Origin: a virus
Taxonomy: Duplodnaviria > Caudoviricetes
Reading direction: 5' to 3' (one strand)
Length of the DNA: 43,217 nt
IMG/VR virus record: IMGVR_UViG_3300025018_003796
Coordinates: 1 to 43,217 of that record
A model generated the notes under the pieces. It saw only the letters and a list, made by a program, of their open reading frames with translations, did not search any database and was not told the origin of the DNA. Positions 13,736 to 39,400 of this stretch are shown piece by piece (position 1 is the stretch's first letter; each line of letters begins with the position of its first letter). Made by a program: the position numbers and the translations under genes.

Positions 13736-13757
13736 AACCCCACCATCCTTTCCTAGT

Positions 13758-14078
13758 TCAGCAGGGGCACTCGCGCCCCGACTCTGTTGTTCCCACCGCC
13801 CGCCGTTCCACCCACACCCAGCCGCTGCCAACCCCGCCAACCCGCGCCTCGATCCCGACGGAAACCAGCCCATTCACCTGGATCTGGCACCAGTCCGCAT
13901 TCGTCGGCGGGGCACCCTCCGCCGCCCGGCGCACCATCACCGTCTTGCGACACCGGCAGCCGGGCCGGTGGTCGCTGGCGTGATCGATCATCATCCCGCA
14001 GGCCGTACACTGCCTGAACTCCACCGACGGGCTCCCGTCCTCTGGTAATTTCGCCGTGATCCGCACCATCTGCACCAT
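13758..14078 (-). CDS. Small Cys-rich hypothetical protein
   Basis: ATG 14078 with AAAGGAG RBS; CTAC...H..GCRC; its TGA stop lies inside the hairpin element. Confidence 0.6.
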   Translation of the reverse strand: MVQMVRITAKLPEDGSPSVEFRQCTACGMMIDHASDHRPGCRCRKTVMVRRAAEGAPPTNADWCQIQVNGLVSVGIEARVGGVGSGWVWVERRAVGTTESGRECPC

Positions 14079-15166: not shown

Positions 15167-16031
15167 GTCCCGGCCCTCCCGGCATTTGCGCATGGTAGCG
15201 GCCCTTGAGCATCGGCATTTTCGCCACCCGCATATTGGCCTCCATCTGTTTAAGGAAAAAGGGCACGCTGGCGGCGGCGCACTGGTCCCGCAGCGACTCG
15301 AACCACTCGCGGCGCGCAAAACGCCGGTTTGCCCCGCTCTCGCAGCCGGCCACCACCCAGCCCAGGCGGTCCAGCCACGGCGAAAGGTCCAACGGCCCCA
15401 GCAGCGGTTCGGCGGAAATCGCCCTCACGTGCGCGGGTGCGTCTATAAGGAAAGGGATTCGCCCCTCCGCCGCCGCCTGGTTCTCCGCGCTCGTCATCAG
15501 GATCACATTCGGCACGGGCCAGCGCGGCACGCTATCAAAGAGCGAATCCGCCGCCAGCGAGAAGCGCGCCCCCAGCCGATCGCCTGCCATCGCCCGGCAC
15601 AGCGGCGGCGAGAACTCCGCGAAGAACCGCGCCAGACGCTCCGGCCGCTTCGTGCAGACAATAAAGGTATGGCGGGCGGCGGCGGACATCACCCCGAAGG
15701 CCGCCGCAATGTCCGCATCCGCCACCCCCTCGAAGAACAGATCATTCCAGACCGCCCAGACCAGCGGCTTGCGCGTCGTCAGCGGGTTCATTAAATCCCG
15801 TTCCATGAAGCGGCACTGCCCCGAGAACCGCCCGCCATCATCGGTCAGCCCGTCATAGCGCTCCCGGATCAGATCATTAGCCTGGCGGCGGCGAACATGC
15901 GTCGCGCTCGCCGCCCAGCAATTCGCGCACCCGGCCGACACATGCGCGCACCCCTCCACCAGCGACCAAGCCCGGTCCCACCACATCCCCGCCGACAACC
16001 GTTCCCCACCCGTCTCGCGCATAACAACCAT
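15159..16031 (-). CDS. Phage Gp37/Gp68 family (DUF5131) protein
   Basis: WSLVEGCAHVSAGCANCWA, NDLFFE, CTKRPER, ISAEPLLG, WVVAGCESG, VPFFLKQ. Confidence 0.9.
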   Translation of the reverse strand: MVVMRETGGERLSAGMWWDRAWSLVEGCAHVSAGCANCWAASATHVRRRQANDLIRERYDGLTDDGGRFSGQCRFMERDLMNPLTTRKPLVWAVWNDLFFEGVADADIAAAFGVMSAAARHTFIVCTKRPERLARFFAEFSPPLCRAMAGDRLGARFSLAADSLFDSVPRWPVPNVILMTSAENQAAAEGRIPFLIDAPAHVRAISAEPLLGPLDLSPWLDRLGWVVAGCESGANRRFARREWFESLRDQCAAASVPFFLKQMEANMRVAKMPMLKGRYHAQMPGGPGRG

Positions 16032-16117
16032 CCTTTCCTAGATCAGCAGTGGCGCTTGCGCCACGAATCTCCATCAGCAGGGGCACTAGTGCCCCGAATC
16101 TCTGCCCCGAATCTCCA

Positions 16118-16432
16118 TCAGCACTGCCGCCCGCACCCCGACTCAATAACCACCGCCACCAGCGCCCCCAGCCCACTCGCCGACGCCGGGAACCGCCCCT
16201 GCACATGGAAGCGCGACCAGCGCCCCTCATCCTGCTCGAACTGCCGTGCCACGATCACCCGCGTTGGCCGCAGCGAATCCTCCACCGTGATCCGAATAAC
16301 CCGCTCCGCCCGTCGCGGCTCATCAGATTCCAAGGCTCGCCGCTGCCTTGCCTCCCCGCTCGCCAGCCCCATCTTCCGTCCCCGTTCCGAAGCCGCCCAC
16401 GCCCGCCGCCGCAAATACCAATTACTAGCCAC
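16118..16432 (-). CDS. Hypothetical protein
   Basis: 104-aa ORF with basic ASERGRKMGLASGEAR motif. Confidence 0.55.
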   Translation of the reverse strand: MASNWYLRRRAWAASERGRKMGLASGEARQRRALESDEPRRAERVIRITVEDSLRPTRVIVARQFEQDEGRWSRFHVQGRFPASASGLGALVAVVIESGCGRQC

Positions 16433-16477
16433 CTTACACCCCGTATGTTGCTCGCAAGTATCTACAAAACTTCATAA

Positions 16478-16732
16478 TCACTTGTTCGGCACCTGACAAT
16501 TTCGTTTGCGGCAATAATGACACCGAGCATCCGCCTTGATGGTTTCCTGCGTCGCTCGCTCGCTTTTAGTGGCAATGGTTCTGTCTCCGCAAACGGGGCA
16601 ATCCCAAACCCATTGGATCAGGTCATCACCACAAGTAGTCTTGTTGTCATCAGCAGTGGCGGGCCGAACATCAACTTGGACCGTACAGGCGGAAGTGCGA
16701 TCACGGTTAGAGAACAGATCAAGCTGATACAT
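16478..16732 (-). CDS. Cassette gene A: Zn-finger-like protein (CPVC...CHYC)
   Basis: AGGAGG RBS and ATG lie inside the attC-like site at 16663-16767; lower GC. Confidence 0.65.
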   Translation of the reverse strand: MYQLDLFSNRDRTSACTVQVDVRPATADDNKTTCGDDLIQWVWDCPVCGDRTIATKSERATQETIKADARCHYCRKRNCQVPNK

Positions 16733-16767
16733 CGCACTTCCTCCTGCCGGTCAAGTCAGCGTTAGAT
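16663..16767 (+). mobile_element. attC-like site (105 bp)
   Basis: GCCGAAC-atcaa-CTTGGACCG...16-bp inner stem with one mismatch...CGGTCAAG-tcagc-GTTAGAT; extra base in the left arm. Confidence 0.8.
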
Positions 16768-16770
16768 TCT

Positions 16771-16941
16771 TTAGATTGGTATTTCACAAATCCACAATTT
16801 TCCTGTACTAATCGCACTCGGGCACCGCCGAGCATTTTTCCCGTCGCAATACCCGTTGGCTCCACCAAGCGTGCATCCGTATTTCTTTTGCCAGCGGTCA
16901 AATTCTTTTTGGTATTCTTTGGTCGTTTTGATCTTCGTCAT
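16771..16941 (-). CDS. Cassette gene B: 56-aa Cys-rich protein
   Basis: ATG 16941 after AGAAGGA; MTKIKTTKEYQKEFDRWQKKYGC...; low GC. Confidence 0.6.
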   Translation of the reverse strand: MTKIKTTKEYQKEFDRWQKKYGCTLGGANGYCDGKNARRCPSAISTGKLWICEIPI

Positions 16942-16964
16942 AACTATTCCTTCTGGTGCGATAA

Positions 16965-17027
16965 ATCTAACATTCGCGTGGAGCATATCCGGGCTCGCCG
17001 CCCGAAATGCTCACGCTGGCGTTCGGG
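16965..17027 (+). mobile_element. attC-like site (63 bp)
   Basis: ATCTAAC-attcg-CGTGGAGCAT...CGGGC/GCCCG...ATGCTCACG-ctggc-GTTCGGG. Confidence 0.8.
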
Positions 17028-17230
17028 CAAATACGTTTCATCCATTCAATGCGCCGCTGTAGTTTGTGGAATCTCTGCGAATCGCCGCTAAACGTGTAGA
17101 GGAAGAACCCCACCGGAGGGAACATGCCAAACGCAGGATATTTCCTGAAGATTGAATCAATCTCGCCTTCATATCTTGAGATGCAGGCCCGAACAACCGC
17201 ATGGAACCTAGCTCGAATAGTCGTTTTCAT
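16967..17230 (-). CDS. Cassette gene C: hypothetical protein
   Basis: Starts in the loop of site 17188-17275 (AAAGGA RBS), reads through site 16965-17027 and stops on the TAG of its core heptamer. Confidence 0.6.
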   Translation of the reverse strand: MKTTIRARFHAVVRACISRYEGEIDSIFRKYPAFGMFPPVGFFLYTFSGDSQRFHKLQRRIEWMKRICPNASVSISGGEPGYAPREC

Positions 17231-17275
17231 GTATCCAATCCTTTCTCCCTCGCAGGTTCATGCAAGGCGTTGTGC
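17188..17275 (+). mobile_element. attC-like site (88 bp)
   Basis: CCCGAAC-aaccg-CATGGAACCT...AGGTTCATG-caaggc-GTTGTGC. Confidence 0.8.
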
Positions 17276-17436
17276 AGAACACACCCGAAGTCATGATCCG
17301 TGTCGCAACCGTACGCGGCACCATCATCATTGTACGCGTCGATCTTCGTCAGAATCACTCGGCAGCTTCCGTAAGGACGGAAGACCAAGCGAACAAAGCG
17401 GCGGACCGCAGCACAACCCATCACCCATTTTCTCAT
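17227..17436 (-). CDS. Cassette gene D: hypothetical protein
   Basis: 69 aa with ATGA coupling at both ends; its stop is inside the loop of the attC-like site. Confidence 0.55.
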   Translation of the reverse strand: MRKWVMGCAAVRRFVRLVFRPYGSCRVILTKIDAYNDDGAAYGCDTDHDFGCVLHNALHEPAREKGLDT

Positions 17437-17732
17437 ATCTCACCTATTTCCCCGGCTTTTGCTGGCCGGTCAGCTCCCTGCATCCTCACGCCCACACGAG
17501 CAAAGCGCATCCCATCGGCCTCCGTCACAATCAGGTTGCACCCCATAACCTGGAGAAGACGGGCCGAAGTAACAGGCCACTGGCCGATCGGGACCGTTCG
17601 GGCAGCTATACACCACCGGAGGTCCTCTAGCTCGCGAACACCAAGCAGAAGCGCGTTCGGCGCGACATTGTGTTCCTGCCAGTAGGCCTGGTATCCATTG
17701 TCCAGCCTGGTCAACATGTCACAGAACATCAT
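17433..17732 (-). CDS. Hypothetical protein
   Basis: 99-aa ORF tightly packed in the operon, GGGGTGG RBS. Confidence 0.6.
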   Translation of the reverse strand: MMFCDMLTRLDNGYQAYWQEHNVAPNALLLGVRELEDLRWCIAARTVPIGQWPVTSARLLQVMGCNLIVTEADGMRFARVGVRMQGADRPAKAGEIGEI

Positions 17733-17997: not shown

Positions 17998-18106
17998 CCC
18001 CCTAGCTCACCCTGGCCACTCGCGGCCAGGAAAAGAAGACAGGCGGCGGGGCGCTTTGCAGGGTTCATTAATTGTTCTTAACGATCCACGCCCCGCCGCA
18101 CCGGGA

Positions 18107-18337
18107 TCACACGACCCCGGATTTAAGAGATTCATTCCTAGCCCGCGACAACCGCGGCAACCGCCACAACTCCGCCCCCACCAGGTCCCGGATACGGTCA
18201 AGCTGGGCCGGGGCAATATGCGCCGGAATCCGCGCCTCGCTAAGCCGCGCCACCTGCCGCAACACCGCCAGCGTTTCATGGTCCTGCCCTAGCTCACCCT
18301 GGCCGCTCGCGGGCAGTGGTCCAGCATCACACATCAT
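18107..18337 (-). CDS. Hypothetical protein
   Basis: 76-aa amphipathic ORF overlapping the ASCH gene stop; preferred over the Arg/Gly-rich alternative 18007-18279. Confidence 0.4.
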   Translation of the reverse strand: MMCDAGPLPASGQGELGQDHETLAVLRQVARLSEARIPAHIAPAQLDRIRDLVGAELWRLPRLSRARNESLKSGVV

Positions 18338-21879: not shown

Positions 21880-22094
21880 ATATCCCCCGCCTTCAACAAC
21901 ACCGCCGCCACCGCCAGGCACAGACACACCAGCGCCGCCCCCGCGATCTCGAGTGCCACGCCGCCGTGCCACACCCGCACCCCCGCGAACATACAAACCA
22001 CCGCCGCCGCCGCCCCGATACCGTCCACCGCCAGCTTGCGCCAGCGCACACACCGCCGAGCCACAGAAACCCGCACAACCCGTTCCACGCTCAT
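21876..22094 (-). CDS. Small membrane protein (2 TM)
   Basis: Two hydrophobic stretches; overlap coupling at both ends. Confidence 0.6.
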   Translation of the reverse strand: MSVERVVRVSVARRCVRWRKLAVDGIGAAAAVVCMFAGVRVWHGGVALEIAGAALVCLCLAVAAVLLKAGDM

Positions 22095-22378
22095 ACCCCA
22101 CCATCCTTTCCTAGATCAGCAGGGGCACTCGTGCCCCGAATATCCGTCACGAACACCAACTGCCGCGCCTCCAGTTCCGCCGCCTTCCGCCGCCTCGTCT
22201 TCCATCCCTTCCGCCTGGCCGCCGCCGTTTTTCGCCGGTAATCCAGCGTTGCCGCCGCGATCTCCCGCTGCATCTGGTCGCACCGGTCCAGCGCCTGCCG
22301 CGCATCCGAGAGCGCCAGCGCCGCCCCCGCCACCGCCAGCACACAACAGAGAAGAACCACAACCGCCAGGAACATCAT
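22091..22378 (-). CDS. N-terminal TM, coiled-coil/basic protein
   Basis: AAAGGAG RBS, hydrophobic N-terminus, AARRKGWKTRRR. Confidence 0.6.
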   Translation of the reverse strand: MMFLAVVVLLCCVLAVAGAALALSDARQALDRCDQMQREIAAATLDYRRKTAAARRKGWKTRRRKAAELEARQLVFVTDIRGTSAPADLGKDGGV

Positions 22379-24424: not shown

Positions 24425-27400
24425 TCACCGGTCAGCCTCGGCGGCTGCCCGGCGGGCGGCCCTGATGAGTTCGCGCTTCGGAGGGCGAACCATACTGCGT
24501 TCAACGGCGTTGATTGATCGGTTGTCGTAATACGGTACATTCCCGTAGGCTCCCAGCCCCTTGTCTGTCACCCGTTTGTTGTACGCCTTGATTTCCTCGG
24601 CGATTTTGTCTTTTTCCTTTTCGGATCGCTGTTCTTGCGGGGCCAGCAGCCATTTCCGGTAGCGGGCGGAGATCTCGCTGCGCATGGCGGCATATTCGGA
24701 TTCGATCTTGCGGTCGGCCCATTGTGTCTCGCGCATGGCCGCGATTGAGGCCGGGTTCGCGCCGGCGGCCCGGAGAATCGTTTCCCCGGTGGTGGCCTTG
24801 CGCGGCTTGTCGCCATCGAACAGCGGCATATTGTTTTCGCCAGTGAGACCTTCGCTGGCTTCGCGGTAGGCTTTGACAAAGTTAGCCTCGAATCGCGGCA
24901 ATAGCGTCTCCGCCGCCTTGAGTGCATTCCCCTCGGCAGCGTACTCCCCGGCTTTGATATAATCGAGGACGGCCGATCCGGGGGCACCGAACCAGTCATA
25001 CCACTTATCGAGTTCAAAGGTCCGCACACCGAGCGAGCCTGAAAGATTGATGTTGGCGGCACCCAGCAGCCCGTAACGGGCGGTGCGTCCAGCGGTGCGC
25101 CCGGCAAAGCCGCCAAGCTGTTCGCTGAAGTATTCCTCGATCCATTGATAGTATTCCTCCTCCGGGTCTTCCGGCGGCTCCACGCCGAACGCCTTAAATA
25201 CCATTTTCGCCAGCAGGACGACAAACTGGCGAGGAATGAACGCCTGCGGACCGGCCAAAAGCGCCGGGGCGACCAGCATCCAGGCCAGCGCGCGGAAGTT
25301 TTTCTTATCGACAGCGATTTCCTTCATCAGCAGGTATGTGTTGTGGGCGAATCCCTGGAACATATACATGGACCGCAAGGTCTGCGCACCAACGGACGGG
25401 CCGCGCGTCCATGCCGGAAGATTGGTCTTGCCGAATACCGAGTTGGCCTTGTTGGACACATACAAGCCTTTATTCAATGCCGCCTCGTTGTCTTTTGCGG
25501 TCCACTCCCCTTTGTGCTGCTCCCTGATACCCCGGTAAGTGGCGGCAATCGTGGACATTCGAACGAGCCGTTCCACAACAGAGTAGGCCAGCAAGTGCGA
25601 TTCCGTGAACTTCTGCATCACCATACCGCTGCGGCGCTGTAGCACGGCCAGTGCCTCGTGGTGTATCTGGCTGCTGTCCCACCCGCGGGCGTGGATCTCG
25701 TTGAACAGTTCCGCGCCGGCAGTGTCGAGCCCCTGCCCTTTGCCGGTCTTCTGGTGAATCTGCCAGCGCACATAGTCGGAGGCTGAACGTGTCAGCAGCT
25801 TTGCCGTCTTGAGCATCGGAATATCAGCAAAGGCGCTCATGGCCGGGCCGCTATGCGTGACCAGCGAGGTGAAGTTGACCAGTCCTGAAAACAGACTGGA
25901 CATATACTTTGTGGCCGTAAGTCCCTTGAGTGTCCCGATTACCCGCTCCGAACGTGTCTCGTTGCGCAGCATCTCCCGTGCGTATGAGACCGCCTCATCG
26001 TAGGCGTTGCCCTGTGTGGCGCTGTCGATCCTGTTTTTGGCAACCTCGTCGGCGTAATCGTGATACCAGTCTACAGCGGCTGCATCAATGTCCTCTGCCG
26101 TGACCCTGCTGGCTGTATTCTCGGCAATGAATGCAGTCATTCTGCGCATCCGGTATTGCCGCCACGTCTCGGTCTGCCCGGTAATGGACCGCATGAACTC
26201 CTTGGCGAGCAGCCGTTTGGCGGTGCCGCCGGCAATGCTCTTGCCGGAAAGCGTGATCGCCTTGAGCGCGTCGGTCTCGTATCCCTGCCAGACCTCCTTG
26301 CCGGTGGAACCGTCGCGGGCGATCTTGTGGGACCGGCTACCGCGCTGGTGGATCAGGTCGGCGATGTTTTCGGTAATCGTCTCGGCAAAGGACGAAACCT
26401 GCATCTTGGTGATCTCGTGGCGTAGCAGTGCATTGACAAGGCGTTTTTCAATATCCCCTTTCGGATTGATGAACCGCCATTCCTTCGGCGAATCGTCCAG
26501 CGTCATGTATTTGCCGCCTGCATCCTTCAGGATGCGGTGCTGATGCTTGCTTGTCACGCCGCCCTCAATAACAAAGTGCTTCTCGATTTTCCCGTTGAGC
26601 GTCTTGTAATCCTCCCACCGGCTGGAAATATTGATGGATTCAAGCCCGCGTGACTCTTTTTCAGTCTTCTTGATCTTGTCGAGTGCTTTCTGCAGTTGAT
26701 CGTTAAGGGCGAGCACGGAAACATCCATATAGGAGGTCTCGCTCGGGCGATCGGATACGGACTGGCTGAACTGGTCGTATCCCTGGCGGCGAAGTTCGCG
26801 CATCTTGGCCCAGCGCATCAAGCCCGTGTCGAACAGTTGCAGGAATCGCGCCCCATCACTTGTGCGGACGGCCGATAGCTTGAACTTGCCGCTGCGGCGC
26901 ATACGCGGCATGTAATAGCCCCGCCGGTCGCCCATCTCGCGCAAGGCCTCCCACAGGTCGCCCATTTCCCCGTCGGCCTTCTTGATCTTCGGCATCGGCA
27001 AGCCCAGGTCGTCAAGCTCGTCCTGCGCCGTCTGCACCTCGCCGCGAATCTGTTCATACGCCCGGTCGTTGATCCGGCGGACCGCCAGCAGCATCTCTGC
27101 GGCCTCGGCGCTGTAGCCTTCCTTGCGCAGGTCGTTCGCTTCCAACTGGTGCGCGGCTTCCCATGCCTGGCTCTCGTAGGTGAAGTTATCCTGAAGTGCC
27201 CCACCCTGCTTGACGGGTTTTCCATCCAGGCCGAAGACCATCCAGCCGCCGTTGCGGTCATCCTCTACCGCCCGGTAGCCCTTGGCGTTCATATCGCGGG
27301 TCCAGAGGTATTTCTCCAGGCGTACCCACTCGGGATTCTGCCAGGAAGATATGGCCTTGAGCGCTGGGCGGCCCTTGGTTGTGAACTTGCGCACGGCTTC

Positions 27401-30400
27401 CAGGTCGCTATCCCCTCGCCCGTCATCACCCTGATTGAAGACCAGGCTTTCAAATTTGAATTTATTGTCCATCCAGCGAGACGCGGACTCGACCATGTTG
27501 CGCAGGCCGGGGACTTTCTCGCCGTAATGGTGAATCGTTGACGCCAGCAGGTCAACCCATGTGATATTCGGGCGCTGGTTGGAATCCCGGATATGTGCTT
27601 CGGCCATTGCCGCCGCACTCTTGTAGCGGCTGGGAACGTTGGCATACACATCATCCCACGAGGATTTCGGGTTGTTTCTGCGGTATTCGGCGATTTGCTT
27701 GTCTGTCGCCTTCCAACGGGATCCGTGGCGCTGGAGTCCACCGATAGATGCCATTGTCATATCCATGGCCTGATTCCACATCGTTTCCGCCTTTTCCTTC
27801 TCGAACTCGGCTTCTGCCGGGGGCTTGTCCAGGTGGGCCGGGGGCTTGAACTCCCAGGCGGTGTCGCCATTCTCGGTCTTGACGGCCTGCAGGAATGGCG
27901 CGCCATCGGGCACGTCGTTGGGATCCTCTGTACGGAACACGCCGGGGCGGACCTCCACCGGGCCGGACTGGTCGCCAGCATCGGCGAGGGCAAAGCGGGG
28001 TTCGTCGGTGGCCCTGTCGAACCGCTCGGAAAGCGTCTTCACGCGACCCGAGTCGTCGCGTAGCTCGGTAGCTAATGTCGGCATACTATAGAATCCCTTA
28101 ATCCATTCAGCCGGAACATTGCCGTGGATCTGTATGCCTGAATAGGTGCCATACGTCACGTTAAAGTTCCCGTCCCACGAAAACCTTTCTAGCGTCTTTT
28201 TTATAGGGATTTTAAGATGAATAACAGTATGCGCGTCATTTAGCGCGCTCAATATCCCATCATATCCCATCGCGATGTCATCAGGATCCAAAAACACATA
28301 AACAGACGAATCCCTTGCATTTCCCGTTCTGCCTGACGAGCTTAGCTCTGTTCCGTTTATGCCGCTTGCAAACTTTTCTTTTGGTGCATCTGTGACATGA
28401 TAAGCGTCAACTTCTTTCGCGTCTGTAAGCCTTCTCAACTCACGCATCATAAAGGACATTGAATCTTCATCATATCCCAGAACACCATTGTTGTCATAAA
28501 ACTGCGCCAAGGATTCCAGCGCCTTGGTGGTCATTTCTGGCTGTGGAATATTATTTGTTTTTATCCATGCGCGATTAACCATGCGCTGCGCTTTTTCCCA
28601 ATCTTCTGTCTCCACCGCCGCCAGGTAGGCGGCATCCTGCTCGGCGGTGACGCCCTGTGCCTTATCTCCCCGCGCCGCCGCCAGTTGATTCATCATTGGC
28701 GCATCAGTGTTGTTCTGTTTATCCATGCGGGCCTGTATAACCGAATTGACATAATCCCGCAACTCTGAATCGGTGGCGGAGAGCTTCATGCCGGCGGCGC
28801 GGCCGATCCGGCGGATGGTGGCGACAATGGCGTCGACAAACCGACCCCAGAGGGAGCGGTTGGTCTGGCCGTCGCGGTAGGCCTTGGCGGCCAGTTCACG
28901 GAAGAACTCGACCGATCCGGGTTTGAAGCCGTAATTCTTTTCGATCTCGCGGGCGATTGACTGCCACTTGCCGCCGTAGGTGGCGATTCCAAGCCGCCGG
29001 GTGCGGACGGGATCGGCAAACTCGTTCTCGATCCGGTGGAAGGCTTCCTCGCGAATGTCGCCGGCCAGTTCGCCGGCATTGTTGTAGCGGTCCAGGATGA
29101 ACCAGGACTTGTCGCCCATCGTCACCGCCCGCACCTGCCCTGCCCCATCGCGCATATAGCGGGCCTGGCCCTCGTTGAGGATCGTCGCGCGCATCTTCTC
29201 CGTGACCGGGATGCTCCAGACCTGCTGTGTGGGCCGGATCTCCGCCGCCAGCTTCTCAATCAGAGCATCGGCTTCGGCCTCGGTACGTTTCCGCCAGGTA
29301 TTAGGCCACTGCGTTACGATCCAGCCGTATTGGTCTTTCGCCTTTGTTGCCTCAATTCCGGTGGTATCGCCTTTCAGTGACGGATCAATGCTCGTCTTGC
29401 CCACCGCCGCGTCCTTGTCAAGCTTCTTGAGATACTTGGCCACCTCGGTCGGGAGGATCTTGTCGTAGAATCCCTTCATCCCATCGCCGCCGATTTCGAG
29501 GTCAAGGCCGGACCAGTCCTGCATTCCGTCAGGGGCGGCGACGATCTTGGCGGCTAGTTCCTTCCCAATCACGTCCGGCAATTTTTCCGCCGTTGTTGTA
29601 GTATCGAGCACCGAAACACCGTCTTTGCGGGCTTCTATGCGATACTGCCCGTCTTCTTTGCGGGTACTCGAAACCGTGTCCACCTGCTTGGCTAGGCTGT
29701 ACCGCTCATTCTGCACCTCGCCCGGCGTCCAGGCCACGGCGTCATAGCCCTGCTCGGCGGCCATGCGCAGCACGCGCTTGAACGCCAGCATCGACCACGC
29801 CGGAGTGCGTTTGAACGGGGCGGCGGGGACGCCCTTGCCGTATCCAGAACCGCCGGGAGAGAAGTCGTCGGGTTCTTTTTTGTAACCTTCCTCGCGTCCG
29901 CGCTGGTGCCAGTCGCTCTGTATTTCCTCGATGAACAGGGTCTTGCGAGGGGGCGTGTACGAGGTTCCGTCCGCGCTCGTCACGCGGTCATTCAGCCGCA
30001 TGTGGACAAGGATGTTCGGATCCTCGGGCCAGTGGGAGGATGTGAAAACGCCTGCGTTGCGAATGCTTTTCTGCTTGTTTAGCGTATCAATCGCGGCTTT
30101 TGTTGCGGCTTCTTCCGAAGAATGCCCCTTGGTTAGCGCCGTTTGCCCGGCTTTGTGAATGACATAGTATTTCCCGTCGTTAGGAGATTTAACGGCCCGA
30201 TACTCTCCGGGTAGCTCGGTTATCCGCGTGCGAACAACCGGCAGCCTGATCAACACCTCGCGGTAGTTCTCGCCGCCGGGTAGCTGGTACTGGCCGAACT
30301 TGGTGTTTGCTCCCACAAGCACCTGGTCTCCGTGGGGTGTATCTTCGACATCGGTTGCCCTTCTCGCGTCCTCAATGTCTTCGATTTCAGAAACATACCG

Positions 30401-33400
30401 CTCGGGAATGTCTTTCCGTGCTCCATCCTGGTCCTGATACAGCCAGCGCAGCGGGCGTCCAGACATGTACGGCATGAACCCTGTAGGCACGCCCAACTCT
30501 ATCCCGATTTGGCGAAGGCGCTGCTCTGCCTGCTCGGCTTTGCTCATAACGCTGGCGTCTTCCTTAACGACTTCTTCCAGCTTCGGTCCGCCCTGCTCGA
30601 TGAAGTCCAGCACCTGATCCTTGGTGACCTTGCCCTCGATGCCCTTGAGCCAGTCGGCCAGGCCGATCTCCTCGTACTCGTCGAGCTTGAACGCGCCATT
30701 CTTCTGCGCGCCTTCAAGGCGGGCAACAAGATACTTGGCGGGCATAGCCTTGAAATCCATCCGTTCCACTGCTCGCCCGAGGGCGGAGTAGAACCCGAGT
30801 TTATCCTGGTTGACTTCCGATCTGGCGGCCCGGCCCTCGCCGCGGGCGATTGCCTGGCGGACCGGGGCGGGTAGAGCGTCCAGGCTTTCGACGGCGCTGG
30901 CGTTCTCGCCGGCCCACGGGGTTTTGTCGGCTTCGGCCTGCATTGTCTTCTCGAACGCGGTGCGGGCGATCCCCGCCGCCGCCGCCGTGGTGGCCCCGCG
31001 CGCGGCTTGGGCGGTGGTGCCTGAAACCTGTCCGTTGATGTCGCGCACCCGTTCGATGGCCATATTATCGGACATATTGCCTGGGCTCGGGCGGAACCTT
31101 GCCTTGGATAGAACGGACAGGCGGGCGGCTATCGCCGGGATCTGGTTAACGTCCACCCTGGCGATCATTCGGTTGCCGACGCGGTTGAAGTCGCCGGTAA
31201 TCGCGCGGATCTGGTCGTCGAGGAAATACTTACTGCCGGTCGCGCGCGCTGCCGGTACGGAAATGTTGATCTGCCCGGTGTAGCCTCGCGGCGTAAGGCG
31301 GACAACATCGCTTTCAACGCCGGATCGCTCGGTATCGAGCCATAAGCGGACCGCCGCGCCGTCCACCAGATCCCGGCGGGGATCGCGGGCAAGCTGGCTG
31401 GGAGTCCAGGTCATGGGCATAAGCAGGCCCGTGATGGTTTTGCCTTCGCGCGTCTTGAACGAGACCAGCCGCCCGCGGTTGCCTGCCGCGTTGATCGCCC
31501 GGATTGGATTGCCTGAAATGATCTGGCGCTCGAATCGTCCGCCGGTCTGGTTGACATCGACCTGGCTTTCGTCGGCATAAGCCCGCCCGATGGAGAAACC
31601 GCCATTACCAACCTGCGACAACGGCACGCGCAGCGAATGGCCGCCGGGCTGGTTGGTCATGATATGCAGCACGATACTACCGGGAGACGCCTTGACACGA
31701 TCGGCGGTCTGTTCGGGCAGGGTGATACCGGTGATCATGCCGATCGCGTCGATACCTTCCTGCTCGTTGGTGATGCTCGCATACTCACCAGCCATACGCT
31801 GGAGCGACAACAGTACCGGTGCCACGCGGCTCTGGAATATGGCAGAGGCATTACGCGCATGATCGAGCCGCTTACGGACAGTGGATAGTTCACCAAGCGT
31901 GATGTCGGGATTCGCAACGGTGGTTTCGCTTTCGTCGATGATCTTACTATAAGCCGTTTCAATCTGTTCCACAAAACCGACAATGCGCTCCTGCATGGCC
32001 TCGGCACTGCCGGAACGCTCCTCGAAATCCTTCTGCATTTCCTTGGCGGTTGGCACATGCCGTGTATCCTTGATCTCCCAGCGCTGGATCTTGGTGTCGG
32101 CCTCGAAGATGTTGGCCTCGCTGGTTCCTGGCCGGAGTGTTTCCTCGCTGATCATCACGCCGTCCCAGTCGTCATGCACGGCAATTTCAAGTTCGTACTG
32201 GTCCGTGGCTTTCAAGTAGGCGATATAATCCGTGTATTTCTGGATGATCGCCGCATAGGCCTCTTTCTGGATACGGTTCGGCATCAGGGCCATTCGACCG
32301 GCAAACACGTTGGCGAAGTCTTCCCGGTCGGGAGTGACTGTCCCGGTGCGCTCGTTGACCTCTGGCGACATATCCAGCATATCCTGCAACGCCGGGTTAT
32401 CCTCGAACATATACTGGGCGACGATCTGGTCGCCGTAGCGGTTCATGAAGTCAACCTGGTCGAGCGAGACGCCGCCTTCCTGCGCTGCCGTCGTGTTGGC
32501 GTTGAGGCTTTTCATCTTGCGTTCAAGCACCATGGCCGGACGCCGCTCGGCTTCCAGCGGCAATACCGGCATCGAATACTTGGCGCCGCCTGGAATCATA
32601 CCGGTGCGCTTGATCCGGCCCAGGGTCTGGACCATGACGTTAATATCCCCGTGAGGCTGGGCGATGATCATATTGCGGGTCTTGATCGGGCGTTCCTTGA
32701 ACTTCGGGGAGGCGTGGATCGAAAGGCCCGTTGAACCGGAGGCGTTGAGGATCAGTGCGTCGAGGTCGCCGTTATTGAATCCATTGACCAGGGCATTCTT
32801 GTCCGCCTTCTGCCGCCGCTCGTAGATGCCCGACTTATAGGATGAGTCCGCATAGCGGATCCCGCTTTGCCGTCCGGTAAGCTCGCCGACACGGAGCCCC
32901 TTGGACCGTAGCCCCTGTAGGATCGCATCAATCGGGGAAGTGGGAATATCGACTTCAAGATCATTGATCTGCTCGATGATCCTGTCATAGAAATCCTGCA
33001 ACCCGAGTTCGCCGGCGGTGGTCGTGAAGGTTTCCGCGTTACCTTGCGGGTCCTTGACGGAAAAACGAAGCGTGCGGTCCAGCGCACGCCGGAGCATATC
33101 CCTGAAATCCATCGAGACCGGATCGCCGACGCGCCAGCCGTTCTGCTCGGCAAACTGATCCATCATGGCTTCCTGCGTGTTCATCAGGGCGATGACTGGC
33201 TTTTCCCCGCGCTGGTGGGCGGCGACGGCTTCTTCCACTACGGCGTCGACCTTGGTGGCCAGCAGCATCTGGGAGATGTAATTATGCGCGATCGAGGCGA
33301 AGGGGGTGTAATCCACCTGGGCGTCGGTCATGGCGGTTGCGCGGGCTCCGGGGCCATTGTCCCGTTTAATGGAAGTCCTGACAAGATTGCTGAACATCTT

Positions 33401-36400
33401 GATCTCGCGGAATATCGAGGTCGTGTCGTCAACCTTCGACGCCAGTTCATCCGCCCGTTCCTGCTGGACGATCTTACGCTCGAATACAACGCCGGAGAAA
33501 TCGCGTTCACGGCGGACAAGTTGACCGACCGAAGAAAGGGCTTCGGCGACGGCCTGCTGCAAGGCGACGCCGCCGCGGCTCATGGCCTCTACCAGATCGT
33601 TGATATTATCCGCCGCCCTCCCCAGGAGTGTGCGGAAATAGAGCGGGGCGTTATCGGGCCGCTTGGCGTAGGTGGCCGAAAGGTAAACCACGCCTTTTAC
33701 GCCTTTGCCGTTGAGGATTCCTGAAAGGACGGTCGTTGTCCGGTTGGCCCCGCTGCCTCTCTTGACCTCGCCGCCGCGAAAGAATGCGCCCTGCATCGAA
33801 TCGCTACCGCTGGCCTCGTGCGCCTCGTCCATGATGATCATGACGCGCTCATTGCGGGAAAGGTGCGTGAGCAGGCGCTGCTGGTCATTCTGCACGTTGA
33901 TCTGCGGATAGGTGGCAATAACCGTGTCGAACTTCTGCGACGCGATACCCTTGTCGATAATGCTGTTGATCGCCGTGCGCCTGGCACCGGCCGACTTCGG
34001 GGCCTTGAAAAGCACGCGCCCGGTCTCGTCAACCACATCCGCGCCGCCGTCCGTGGAGCCCAGGATGAACGGATTGAAGGAATAGCCGACATCATTGGCG
34101 TCGCGCTGCAAGTCGGAAAAGAGCTTGGCATCCTTTGTGAAGAATATGGGGATGATCCCGTTCTGCTGGGCATAGCGCATGATCCCGGCGGCCTGGCGGC
34201 CCTTGCCTATGCCGGTCTCGTCGGCAATGATCAGCGCGCCGCCGTTCTCGATCTGGTCGATCGCCAGCGCCACGCCGTCCACCTGCTCGGCGGCCATCGC
34301 CCGGTGCAGATCCGCGATCGTATCGTAACCGAGCTTGTACCGCACCCACTCGTCAATGTCGCCGCCCACCTTGTCACGCAGCTTCTCCAGGGCGGAGGCA
34401 ATGCCGGGGGCCATATTCGAGGGGACAAGGGTTTCGAGGCTGGTCGCGTCGGAGGCCGGAACATAACGGTGCTGACCGGCGTTCTGCGGCTGCCCTAGTA
34501 GAGAAGTGCCTCTAGGTAGGTCCCGAGGTTCAACTCGGTCGCCAGTTCCAGCGCGGTCTCCGGATCTTCCATCGGCGTCTGCGGGCTGTTCATCGCGTCC
34601 CTCGCGCTGGTTATCCATTCCCTTATCGGATGACCCGCGTCCGCCTGGGGCAGAAGTTCTGTCATTAGTGCGTGGACTGAAAAGGTCTTGTTCGTCAGGG
34701 GTTCCGGCGGCAGAATCATCCGAACTTCGTATGGCAGGTTTTCTACGAGGCGGGATTGTTCCTCTCGTAGATCCGCTTCGTCCGCCTCGTCCACCAGCCT
34801 TTGCAGGATTGCTGCCTGGTTGCCCAGGAACTGCTCCAGTGTCTTCGGGGGCGGGCTGTTGCGCTTCAGGACGCACATCAGGTCCGATCTTCCGATCGGC
34901 ATCCAAACTGTCTCGTCTTTTTTCAACTGCATCACGCACCTCCTTGGCTCTGGTATAAATATCATCCCACGACGTTAATCTGTCAACACTTTTTGGAGCC
35001 AGATCCTGCGGCACGGAAGGCACGTCCTGCCGCCGCCCGTCAAGGACGATCACCCGGAGCGGCCATTTGGCCCCCTGCTTGCCGTACAGCTCGCCGTCGA
35101 TCTCGAAATGGTCGGCCACATTGAAGTGGTTATGCAGGTAGTTGAGGAACGTGCGGTCGGCCCCCTGCCCTATTTCGCCGGGTTCGCGGTTCGCACCCAG
35201 GATCATGACGGCACGGCCATCGGCGGCCAGACCGCGCAAGGCCTGCAAGGCGATGACATGCTCGATCTTCTTGATCGCGTACCCGTCCACATTGGTGGTC
35301 GGATAGGAAGCAAACGGCGGATTCATCACAATCGTGGCGTGCGGGCCGCCGGGCTCGCGGGCCGTGGCGTCATCGGTCGTGACGGTGGGCACCCCTAGTG
35401 TGCGCAGATTGGACGCGCGGGCGGGATCCAGTTCGTTCGCGGTGACTTTCGCCTTGTCCAGGCCGATCAGGAGCATCCCGTTGCCGCCGGTGGGCTCGTA
35501 GACGCTGGCGGCCAGATCCGCCGCCGCCATATAGGAGGAAATAAACGCCAGCGGTGCCGGGGTGCTGTAGGCCTGGTTCTCGATACTGGTGGAAGTGCGG
35601 GCGGTAAGCAGGGGCTGATTCTCGTAGAGTTCGACCAGTGCCTTGTATTTGGCGGCCGTATCCAGATTCGCGCGGCTGGCGATCTCGTCGGCGATCTTGA
35701 CCAGTTCAAACTCGATGCGCTCCTGTAGCTGCTTGAGGGTGATTCCCTCGGCGCTGGCCATCTGGCGCATCCGCACTGCTTTCGCCTGGTTGCTGTCTCG
35801 TGAGTTGATTAGCTCGCGAAGGGCCAGATCAGGCTTGACGGCTGTATTCACGTTTTCCGCCGCGGCTTTGTCAATAGCCGAAATCACTTCCCGCGCGTCG
35901 GTCCGGGAGATGTCGTCGAGGGTGTCATCCACCGCGCCGGCGCTCTGCCAGGCCCCGTGCAGGAATACCTTGATCGCGTCCCAGAAGTCGGCCATATCGA
36001 CCGATACGTTATGCGCGAACTGCTTGAAGGTCTTGACGCCACCCTCGGCATAGAGCGCGGCCATCTGCGCCGCCAGCGATACGTTCTCGGGGTCCATCAC
36101 TGGCGGTATCTGAAGCGGGTTCATGCTCAAGGTGCCGTTGTTCTTTGACAGGTTCGCCCGGAGTTTGTCCTGGATCGCCTTGAGCTGCGCCTGCTTCTCG
36201 TCGGAAAGGTTCAGCTTCGCGCTCTTGACTTCCACCTTGGCGCGCGCCTTGGGTGCCGGGGCGGGCGACTGGGCGGGCCGGTTCTGTTCGAGCCATGCAA
36301 ACGCCTCGCTGGCTGTGGCGAATCGCGGCGTCTTGTCGATCGCCTTTCCTTTTTCGTCTTTCGTATAGAAAAACGGTTTCCCGATGACTGCTTCGCGGTC

Positions 36401-39400
36401 TCTAAGCGAACTGGATTGATTCTTCACCCAGTTCTGGATGAAATAATGAGCGAAATACCGTTCTTCCTGTTCTGTCGTCAGCGCGTCAGCGGCTAGCGCC
36501 GGGGTGTTTGGTGCCGGGGCGGCGGGGGTGGCCTCGGCCTTATCCGCGCCCATGTACTTCATGGCCCAGTCGGTCCACTGGTTGTAATTCGTCTCCGGGT
36601 CCTCGTTGGTGGAGTTTACAAACACCCGTGCTTGAGCATAGTCGGGTTTCATCAGGTGCGGGGCGATGTTACCAAGCCAATGCCCCCACGCGGTCCGGAT
36701 CTCGGAAAGCAAGGTGATTCTCAAATTGTGCGGGCTGTTCTTCTGCGTATTCTGGACAATATCCTTCTCGACTATGAGTTCAAGCACATCCTGCCACGGC
36801 TGGAAGATGCGCGCGCCGGCGGCCTTGGCGTTCTGCTGCTGGTTGGCCAGCGGCTTGAGAATGGGTTTTTGTACCGCTGGCTGCTCACCGAATAGATACA
36901 TGTTGGCGGCATCGCCAGCGGCGGGCGGGAAGTTCAGGGCGGACATGGCGGAGAACTGCGTCACGTTAAAATCATCCCCGCGCGCCGCCGCCTCCGCTTT
37001 GGCATTCTCGATCAGCCAGTTGTTCATCTTGATCTGGTCGGGTTTCGTGGTGCGCTTTGTCGAGTATTTCGGATAGGGCGTCGTGGTGCGGCCTGACGAG
37101 GTACGGAACACGTCACCGGGCTTGATCCCGCCCTTGCCGTCGGATACCCTGCCGTCCTCGTCCATCGTGCGGATGTTGGACTGTTCGCCCGCCGCCGCCT
37201 GGGTGGGCGCGGCGCCAGCTTGCTCGACGGCCGCATACAATGCCTGGAACGCTTCGCCGCGGGAATCAAACTCGTTTTCCCCGAGAGCCTGCTTGATTTT
37301 CTCGAAATTGGGGTTCTCGCTTGACGGGATCGCGAACCATTTCTTTGAGGCGATCGCCTGATCCACGATGCCGCCGCGTACAGGGTTGTTGCTTGTTGCA
37401 AGCCCGCCCGGTCGGGATTCGGTCCAGTTGTCGCCTTGTGGTAGCTCCATTGGCCCCAGAAGATCACCGCCAAAGCGCAAAGGTCTCGGGGCGTCGGCCT
37501 CGGCGTCGATGCGTTTCTCGTACTCGGGGTAGGCGTCGGCCAGGTTGGCCATTTGCTCGGACCACATGTTGAAGCCGGCATTCTTCGGGGTGTACTTGAA
37601 TCCCTGCTGCAGGGCATTCTCGTACTCGGCCTTGAACTGCTCGTAGGTCAGCCCGGCGGGAATCGGTGAGTTGGCCGTCATGACTGGCTTGTAGACTTCG
37701 GGTGCGGCAACGGGGGAAGATTGTTGTTTGAATGTCGGAACGTCCTCGCCAAACTCATCGGGGTACGTCTTTGCCAGTTCAGCGGCGTCCATCTGGAACT
37801 GTGGATCAAACTCTAAAGCATTGCGGTCATACTCGATCAGGTCCGACACGCCGTTTTCGCCTTCGCCGGCCAGCGTGATCTTGTCTCCGTCGATCTTTAC
37901 CACGGGTCCGATGAATCCGTCTGCGTCTTGCAGAACCATGCCACGAACAGGCGTATATGGAACGGGTGCTTGGCCGATGCGTCGTTGTTGCTCTGCTGCT
38001 TTGGCTTCCGCCGCCTTCGGTGTCTCGATCCCTGCCAGTTTCGCGGCAAAGGTGATCGCGGCCTGTTCGCCGCCGGGACCGTCGCGGAGGGCATCGAACA
38101 TCTTGAGACGCTCGGCGCGCTGCTTCATGGTGAATGGCTGCTGCTTGATCCAGATGCGCCAGCCCTTGGTGTCGGTGACCTTTACGCGCTCGCCCTTGGC
38201 ATCCTTGTAGAATACGGCTTGCTCGGTGCCGGTGGGGTCGTCGCCCAGCAGGGACATATCCGCCGCCGCTGCCTTGGCTTTGCGCTCTTTCTCGCGCTGG
38301 GCGTCGCGTTCGGCCTGGATGGCTGCATCGTTCCTGGCGGCGCCGCCTGCTAGGTTGAACGGTTCGTCTTTACCAAAGAGGCTCCCCGTTCCAGCCTGGC
38401 CTTGAGTTGCTGCCGTGCCTGTGCGCGTTCCGCCGGCGTCAGGCGCTCGTTCTCCGCGTTGCACTGCATCCCGGCCGCCTCGATCGCTGTCGCCAGCGAA
38501 TAGCCCTTCTGCTGGTACTCCGCCTGGAGCCGTGCCGACTTCCTGCCCATCTCTATCGCGCCTTTGCTGCTCATCGTCTGCCTCCGGTTTGCCTTCATTG
38601 TCAAATGCCGCCACATCAAAGTCAAGATCATCCTCTACTGCCGGGGCGAGCCCCGTCACCTGACCTACGGGAACAGTGAATTTCTGAAAGGTCAGGTTGT
38701 CAGTCAGGTCGTAGTAGAGGCGCATATCATCGCCGACATAGGCGGATTCCACTCGGAAGGTTGACCCTTTGTCCCCCACCCCGTCGGCAACTACATCGGT
38801 CTGTGGCGGGAATATACGACCGGATTCAATCGCCTGCGCCAGTTCAGCGTTCGCGGCGTCAAATGCCTCGTTTTGTTTACCACGGAATTCGTTTTCCTGC
38901 TGGTCGAGCAATTCGGCCTGCTGGTCCTGATCCATGTTGCGCGCACGGGTAGGAAACTGTTTGGTAGCCTTCCAGTGCTGGTAGTCGGCGACTTCCTCGC
39001 GGATCGCGTCCCACATATCGTCAATGCTGGCCCCCTCGGGCAGGAAACCGGCCTCGCCGCCGCGTCCGCCGGTGGAGGATAGGGCGGCAAGCATCTGGTC
39101 CGGGGAGTTGGTGCCGGTCTTGGAGAACACCCCCATGAAGGCGGGCACGGCCAGTTTCTTGCCATCCTCGACAATCCCGTCGTAATTGCCGTCCACCAGC
39201 TTGGCGGGGCCTGCCAGCTTTCCGGGCTTGGTAAACTGGGGCGAGCGCATCCCGCCGCGACTGTTGATCTCGTTGATCAGGGGGGTAACGCGGTCATCCT
39301 GCGTGTAGGTAACATTGCTCTTGAATTGACCTTTTGCCGGGGATTTTTCCAGGGACTTCCGCCGCCGCTCGGTCTTCTTCGCGGCATTCTCCGCCGCCGC

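Follow-up and report, generated by a model that had tools for sequence, protein, structure and literature searches.

A probably integrase-less array of reversed attC cassettes in a prophage

The prophage analyzed here carries a mobile array of attC sites that is real, is a CALIN by definition, and has a reversed polarity. CALIN have two or more attC sites with no intI nearby; here we found three sites and no intI within the 43,217 bp of the window (the whole stretch of DNA under analysis). The array has no intI beside an attI, as a complete integron would, nor top-strand genes ending before the attC, as a canonical array would. We give a probability of roughly 70% to the reading that this is an integrase-less, reversed cassette array for which an IntI-type enzyme is likely supplied from elsewhere: the joints fall exactly at the cut point of the hairpins and bring in new neighbors, which makes it likely that a borrowed integron enzyme shuffles the cassettes. 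The minus-strand genes run leftwards from about 23.4 kb in the order HTH, methyltransferase, DUF2303, array, DUF5131, terminase, portal, and capsid, and this gene order suggests that the array lies inside an early operon.

A motif scan of the 43,217 bp yielded exactly three sites with a perfect attC-type anatomy (Table 1), which lie on the + strand; the - strand has none. The pattern was AAC-N5-L'' (8 nt)...L' (7 nt)-N5/6-GTT, in which the L stem had to be perfect, and the chance expectation, obtained from 30 order-1 shuffles, is 0.3 such sites per genome. This bears out the three hairpins of the initial annotation, made from the sequence alone, and the four complementary heptamer pairs that it saw bracketing consecutive segments were all found in place. 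In the window, a random GTT has a complementary heptamer 100-300 nt downstream in 13 out of 659 cases (~2%). The block was also rightly described as poorer in GC than its flanks (51.1% against 65.4% and 61.9%), with 21 of the 846 sliding windows of 934 bp being as GC-poor. In each of the three sites the extra base is a G at L'' position 4/5, and since the arm carrying this extrahelical base is R''-L'', the + strand is the top strand. Accordingly, the bulge on the bottom strand is a C in 3/3 sites, and not the conserved, albeit non-essential, G. In the data of Bouvier 2009 (PMC2727003) available to us, replacing this G by C has a 2.7-fold cost in attI x attC recombination with IntI1, and none in attC x attC.

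Table 1. Positions of the array features in the window.
Feature	Position	Strand	Description
attI-like entry site	16459..16490	+	TAAT-N5-G^TT; predicted crossover after 16484; AT-rich, no attC arm
Cassette 1	16485..16761	+	277 bp; heptamers GTTCGGC/GCCGAAC at 16484/16663; assemblies break at 16763
Cassette 2	16762..17021	+	260 bp; heptamers GTTAGAT/ATCTAAC at 16761/16965; occurs in other contexts
Cassette 3	17022..17269	+	248 bp; heptamers GTTCGGG/CCCGAAC at 17021/17188
Segment 4	17270..17417	+	heptamers GTTGTGC/GCACAAC at 17269/17411; retains R'' (GCACAAC), without its attC
attC1	16663-16767	+	105 bp; L''/L' = CTTGGACC/GGTCAAG
attC2	16965-17027	+	63 bp; L''/L' = CGTGGAGC/GCTCACG
attC3	17188-17275	+	88 bp; L''/L' = CATGGAAC/GTTCATG
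Flanking 104-aa ORF	16118..16432	-	~61% identical homologue in an attC-closed unit of another phage
ORF1	16478..16732	-	84 aa, 7 Cys; AGGAGG and ATG in attC1 loop; stop beyond the crossover
ORF2	16771..16941	-	56 aa, 4 Cys; AGAAGGA upstream; ends 3 nt short of the R' heptamer
ORF3	16967..17230	-	87 aa, 3 Cys; AAAGGA and ATG in attC3 loop
ORF4	17227..17436	-	69 aa, 4 Cys; stops inside attC3

We then scored the sites with two covariance models, R1 and R2, which are home-made and small, have no window DNA in their training sets, and give rough E-values. R1, trained on 8 canonical attC of TJE1 and one class 1 integron, had only two hits in the 43 kb, both on the + strand, namely attC1 (24.1 bits, E 0.002) and attC3 (14.8 bits), and missed attC2. 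R2, built from 13 attC of IntI-carrying viral contigs and 3 canonical ones, placed attC3 first (14.7 bits) and attC2 second (12.8 bits) among 10 hits, on the + strand, and missed attC1. Each model thus omits one of the three sites, and three of the four scores have E >0.2. A search of Rfam gave no matches. The identification of attC1-3 as attC-type sites of mobile cassettes is supported by their anatomy and by the changes of neighbors described below. The cassette size of 250-280 bp initially proposed holds for three of the units (Table 1) but not for segment 4, which spans 149 bp up to its R''. Of the two outer sites, both initially called half-sites, the left one instead resembles an attI (see below), and the segment on the right keeps an R'' without an attC. 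In segment 4, 103 nt are identical to a cassette that is closed by a complete 134-bp attC in another phage (contigs L013, L015, and L017), which itself bears a reversed array. They are followed by 37 unrelated nt of equal length and then by the same R''. This replacement (17374-17410 against L015:2611-2647) is in frame and strips a CxxCxxW motif from ORF4, and the version in the window resembles the left arm of an attC. A possible fourth attC at 17385-17490, in an eroded state, did not score as high as background, and this candidate was dropped.

The contigs of seven public runs were compared with the array (run X1 twice). The run with the best coverage of this DNA comes from an aquifer metagenome and is possibly its source. 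In runs X3, X4, X8, and X9, the match to cassette 2 starts at 16758-16768 and stops at 17023, the last T of the GTT. In these other contexts the cassette has at least two other followers and, in X3, X8, and X9 (start at 16758-16760), two other predecessors. Since X8 and X9 come from one sample and the 2017 aquifer runs may belong to one campaign, these occurrences represent perhaps two independent settings. The assembly graph of X1 has a 244-nt branch after 16763, with the window form at a depth of 10.2 and the other form, which may belong to another phage, at 3.7; contig L001 begins exactly at 16763. Near-identical attC2 hairpins close other cassettes, and the hairpin moves with the segment on its left, as predicted by the canonical crossover at R'. 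The same boundary is visible in the proteins, where the crossover heptamer read backwards gives Pro-Asn (PN). ORF1 ends in VPN-K in the window, in EPN-AGVTLCRDERQ in the homologue P0001, and in VPN-ASNERRQEPPERKP in P0124; ORF3 ends in CPN-ASVSISGGEPGYAPREC in the window and in CPN-APHHPSGCSGAEPR in P0122. All three homologues diverge immediately after PN. The neighbors thus change precisely at G^TT, as anticipated for cassettes exchanged at this point, and the changed neighbors at R' and swapped C-terminal tails are direct evidence of cassette mobility.

Other gene modules of this phage are bounded by repeats, and the 37-nt swap in segment 4 is not at a GTT, two observations that would suit a view of the hairpins as terminators or chance repeats and of the mosaicism as the outcome of homologous or illegitimate recombination. 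We find this view hardly credible, as it is largely refuted by the boundaries: those in DNA coincide with GTT, and those in three proteins with PN. Furthermore, the loops of the attC sites are unrelated and hence offer no homology for recombination to use, and none of attC1-3 is among the eight terminator-like hits in the window, a number equal to that expected by chance. The counts of promoters and terminators in the window are also at chance level. As for the circle junction predicted for an excised cassette (17021 joined to 16762), it was not found among the contigs listed for the seven runs, in which rare forms are dropped. Three cassettes of this layout are also chained in L003, a distant 65-71% relative. 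We found no match to the array in GenBank phages or plasmids, and a search with the attC2 motif retrieved no viral contig and a single GTDB contig. Two further joints were left aside: contig L014, in which the shared 103 nt are flanked by the other phage on the left and by this phage on the right, is possibly a chimeric assembly and was not counted, and the joint at 17447 in X8 involves 21 nt, too short to rely on.

The four array ORFs are all on the bottom strand. They are tiny, in line with the first description, and the term "mostly Cys-rich" is fair for three of the four given their Cys counts (Table 1). ORF1 and ORF3 start in the loop of their own attC and receive their C-terminal tails from the neighboring site; the last 17 residues of ORF3 are encoded by attC2, with the stop in its R''. 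ORF4 has ATGA overlaps with ORF3, within the attC3 loop, and with an upstream 99-aa ORF. From this arrangement, the array sites appear to double as translation signals and coding tails. The bottom-strand ORFs are the predicted genes of the array, a prediction supported by the homologues of these frames: a search with ORF1 gave 25 hits at E ≤0.001, and for ORF2 and ORF3 there are close variants, one of which (P0127, a variant of ORF2) retains the frame and the Cys. A competing 82-aa frame on the + strand is absent from the protein collection searched. Among the public runs listed as containing this DNA, none was an RNA dataset.

Four Cys are invariant across the 25 homologues of ORF1, five of which weakly match the zinc-ribbon family PF17283, and ORF1 is predicted to be a zinc-binding accessory protein (WxCPxC...DxxCxxCR). 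Its model (pLDDT 72) had no structural match. None of ORF1-4 matched Pfam, PHROG, or NCBIfam at E 0.01, the ESM Atlas returned unnamed clusters only, and viral searches with the 209-aa, 99-aa, and ORF4 proteins gave no matches. The sole viral match of ORF2, in L012, is spurious and the contig carries no attC. PADLOC, which covers defence systems and not anti-defence proteins, matched none of seven proteins, and an anti-defence function of the array proteins is a guess.

The lack of a tyrosine recombinase noted at the outset was confirmed, for these 43 kb only, by the absence of matches to PF00589 and to an IntI profile (16 kb on the left of the array and 26 kb on its right). We also analyzed viral contigs that carry an IntI. 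In IMG/VR, 344 relatives were confirmed with an IntI alignment as the query, and the best 80 were taken further; being ranked by their likeness to one phage IntI, these loci are a biased sample. Cassette chains were obtained by the strict scan in 25 of these best 80. ORF coverage, used first as a strand test, did not separate the strands clearly (18 bottom, 17 top, 43 ambiguous), and we turned to a codon model. This model assigned 63 of the 76 cassettes of IntI-carrying viral contigs to the bottom strand, 12 to the top strand, and left one ambiguous, with 22 of the 25 loci mostly bottom-strand (some are near duplicates, and L085 scores near zero). In four published control arrays, 14 of the 15 cassettes were top-strand and one ambiguous. 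The model is uninformative on the two window cassettes that were scored, whose ORFs are short, and it called one cassette of L003 top-strand. Bottom-strand ribosome-binding sites within the attC were found in 16 of the 61 sites beside a phage IntI against 0 of 16 in the controls.

These contigs resemble the window array in their reversed genes, read-through tails, starts and ribosome-binding sites in the attC, and the heptamers GTTCGGC and GTTGTGC. They differ in that an intI lies beside a conserved attI (TGTCGTYGAAT-N4-GTT) and in that the bulge on the bottom strand is mostly a G. Neither is seen in the window, where the top-strand bulge is a G in the three sites, versus a C in 55 of the 61 attC beside phage IntI. 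None of the 80 loci has a match to the window cassettes. The conserved attI, which also occurs as GCGGTCGAAT-N4-GTT, precedes intI by 100-250 bp in these phage integrons with reversed cassettes, and the motif is present in L041, L046-L053, L062, L064, L077, and L086-L103. We found no printed description of IntI-carrying viral contigs with reversed arrays. In addition, the GenBank phage L026:4680-10100 (KX853513, Virus Rctr41k) has a full IntI-like gene, 40.5% to Vibrio IntI, among small genes, and attC-like cassettes spaced as AAC-N5...N7-GTT come next in the same direction; this phage was not found in those tables of Qi et al. 2023 that were accessible.

The left end of the array differs from the attI of these phage integrons. 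The 25 nt preceding its GTT are the second most AT-rich among the 1169 GTT sites of the window, and TAAW-N5-GTT, a motif picked after seeing this site, occurs at 5 of the 1169. The spacing of TAAT-N5-GTT is common to the left site and the attI of Shewanella M16-3. On a profile of phage-IntI attI, made of 28 automatically picked sites of which some are wrong, the left site ranks 999 out of 1169. Judged by its spacing, AT richness, and profile rank, the left end may be a host-type attI rather than a phage-type one. The contig of an 85% relative (L002:1-60) also ends at AAC, with an AT-rich site that is not an attC and no 104-aa gene.

Could the phage have, or have had, an integrase of its own? 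The gene might lie in the missing part, or the array might be what is left of a phage integron that was once complete, with an intI just beyond attI as is normal, and then lost this gene; it may by now be largely frozen. The record is classed as a provirus that is 65% complete, and a metagenome contig of 51,579 bp (L016) contains the same DNA, matching at 100% over 10 kb; its last 8.4 kb lie beyond the searched stretch. Moreover, intI in the viral contigs lies ~100-250 bp beyond attI and is co-directional with the reversed genes, the array shows erosion at its distal end, and in a related array one site is missing the GT of its GTT (the attC at L015:2453-2512, which likely locks two cassettes together). 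Yet, neither the window nor eight related loci gave an IntI remnant (best E 0.58), the left site does not fit the phage attI type, and X1, the likely source run, still branches at GTT, although perhaps in another phage. We thus regard an own or lost integrase as unlikely. The null result for IntI remnants, the failure of the phage attI profile, and the host-like left site make the supply of the integrase in trans the simplest reading.

The enzyme could also be a simpler, Xer-like tyrosine recombinase rather than an IntI, acting on a family of attC with a C bulge, since the identity of the bulge and the type of attI are unlike those beside phage IntI. This seems very unlikely to us. Box spacing, bulge position, and crossover at R' are all canonical, 6 of the 97 sites on the array strand of the IntI loci also have G bulges, and IntI1 tolerates the change of bulge in the available data of PMC2727003. 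The search for a host found none, with the best terminase matches being 40-51% identical. An IntI in the bin holding L017 was rejected as host evidence because it is broken into two frames, is on a different contig, and has betaproteobacterial proteins as its best named homologues, against a Peribacteria label for the bin.

In the mechanism that we favor, with the integrase in trans, an IntI-type enzyme from a host integron or from another phage would do the swapping. IntI recombines the folded bottom strand at R' (Bouvier 2009, PMC2727003, in the sections available), so that the unit exchanged is a gene plus the hairpin to its right on the + strand. New cassettes would enter at the attI-like site, at 16484, and would be transcribed by read-through from the leftward operon of the prophage and not from an integron Pc promoter, with the attC loops presumably serving translation through the ribosome sites and ATGA overlaps that they contain. 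Reversed genes would be silent if captured by a normal host integron, and phages may thus draw on a pool of their own. Whether there is a phage-own branch of integrons, with a pool of backwards cassettes, attC loops serving as modules for ribosome binding, coupling, and tails, and an IntI borrowed from co-infecting phages or the host, is in our opinion an even bet. If it exists, only a phage operon expresses the backwards cassettes, and each shuffle alters both gene content and protein C-termini.

Phage CALIN are already known, and the window array differs from those rescanned here in its reversed layout. The accessible part of Qi et al. 2023 (PMC9892861) reports 17 CALIN, including those of TJE1, PH101, and P12002L, and recombination with IntI1 for 5 of the 6 sites assayed; TJE1 and PH101 are described there as typical, and divergent sites are mentioned for P12002L. 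As far as that part goes, these elements and the window array are alike in having at least two attC, no intI nearby, and small accessory genes. However, TJE1 and Shewanella M16-3, which we rescanned, have top-strand genes ending at R''/L'', whereas the window genes are all bottom-strand and two of them start inside an attC loop, with tails from the neighbor. The contrast in polarity is with these two rescanned arrays, and reversed arrays could be present among the 17 CALIN. Relative to bacterial integrons and CALIN, as described in the available portions of PMC4889954 and PMC2727003, the array shares the R''-L''-VTS-L'-R' organization, the bulge arm, the crossover at R', and an attI-like entry, and differs by the lack of intI in the window, the absence of a visible Pc-type promoter, the antisense genes, and the C bulge on the bottom strand. 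Further integron literature was compared in the parts accessible to us (PMC8876359, PMC13108822, PMC13323075, 10.1101/2023.11.21.568050). A search that covered subscription literature thinly turned up no paper describing phage cassette arrays that are reversed throughout.

At this locus, DNA and protein sequences alike bear evidence of swaps placed exactly at the crossover, and the array provides a bench-testable case of a single hairpin that would be at once a recombination site, a translation start, and a coding sequence. Integrons have been treated as bacterial tools and, recently, as stores of anti-phage genes. If phages do have a reversed cassette pool on their side, the same integron chemistry would also serve them, and many small orphan early genes that end in odd "...PN-A..." tails would be accounted for.

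Other repeats were observed in this genome. An intergenic repeat of 45-70 bp with a ribosome-binding site lies between gene modules at 13737-13785, 16008-16111, and 22078-22153, and the stretch between analogous repeats differs by one gene in L003 and L004; it is possibly a second, homology-based swapping system. A 30-bp direct repeat (18000-18029 and 18287-18316) flanks a small ORF. Finally, positions 24425-42280 encode an ORF of 5951 aa, with strawberry-notch/ResIII helicase domains in the 4760 aa that were scanned.
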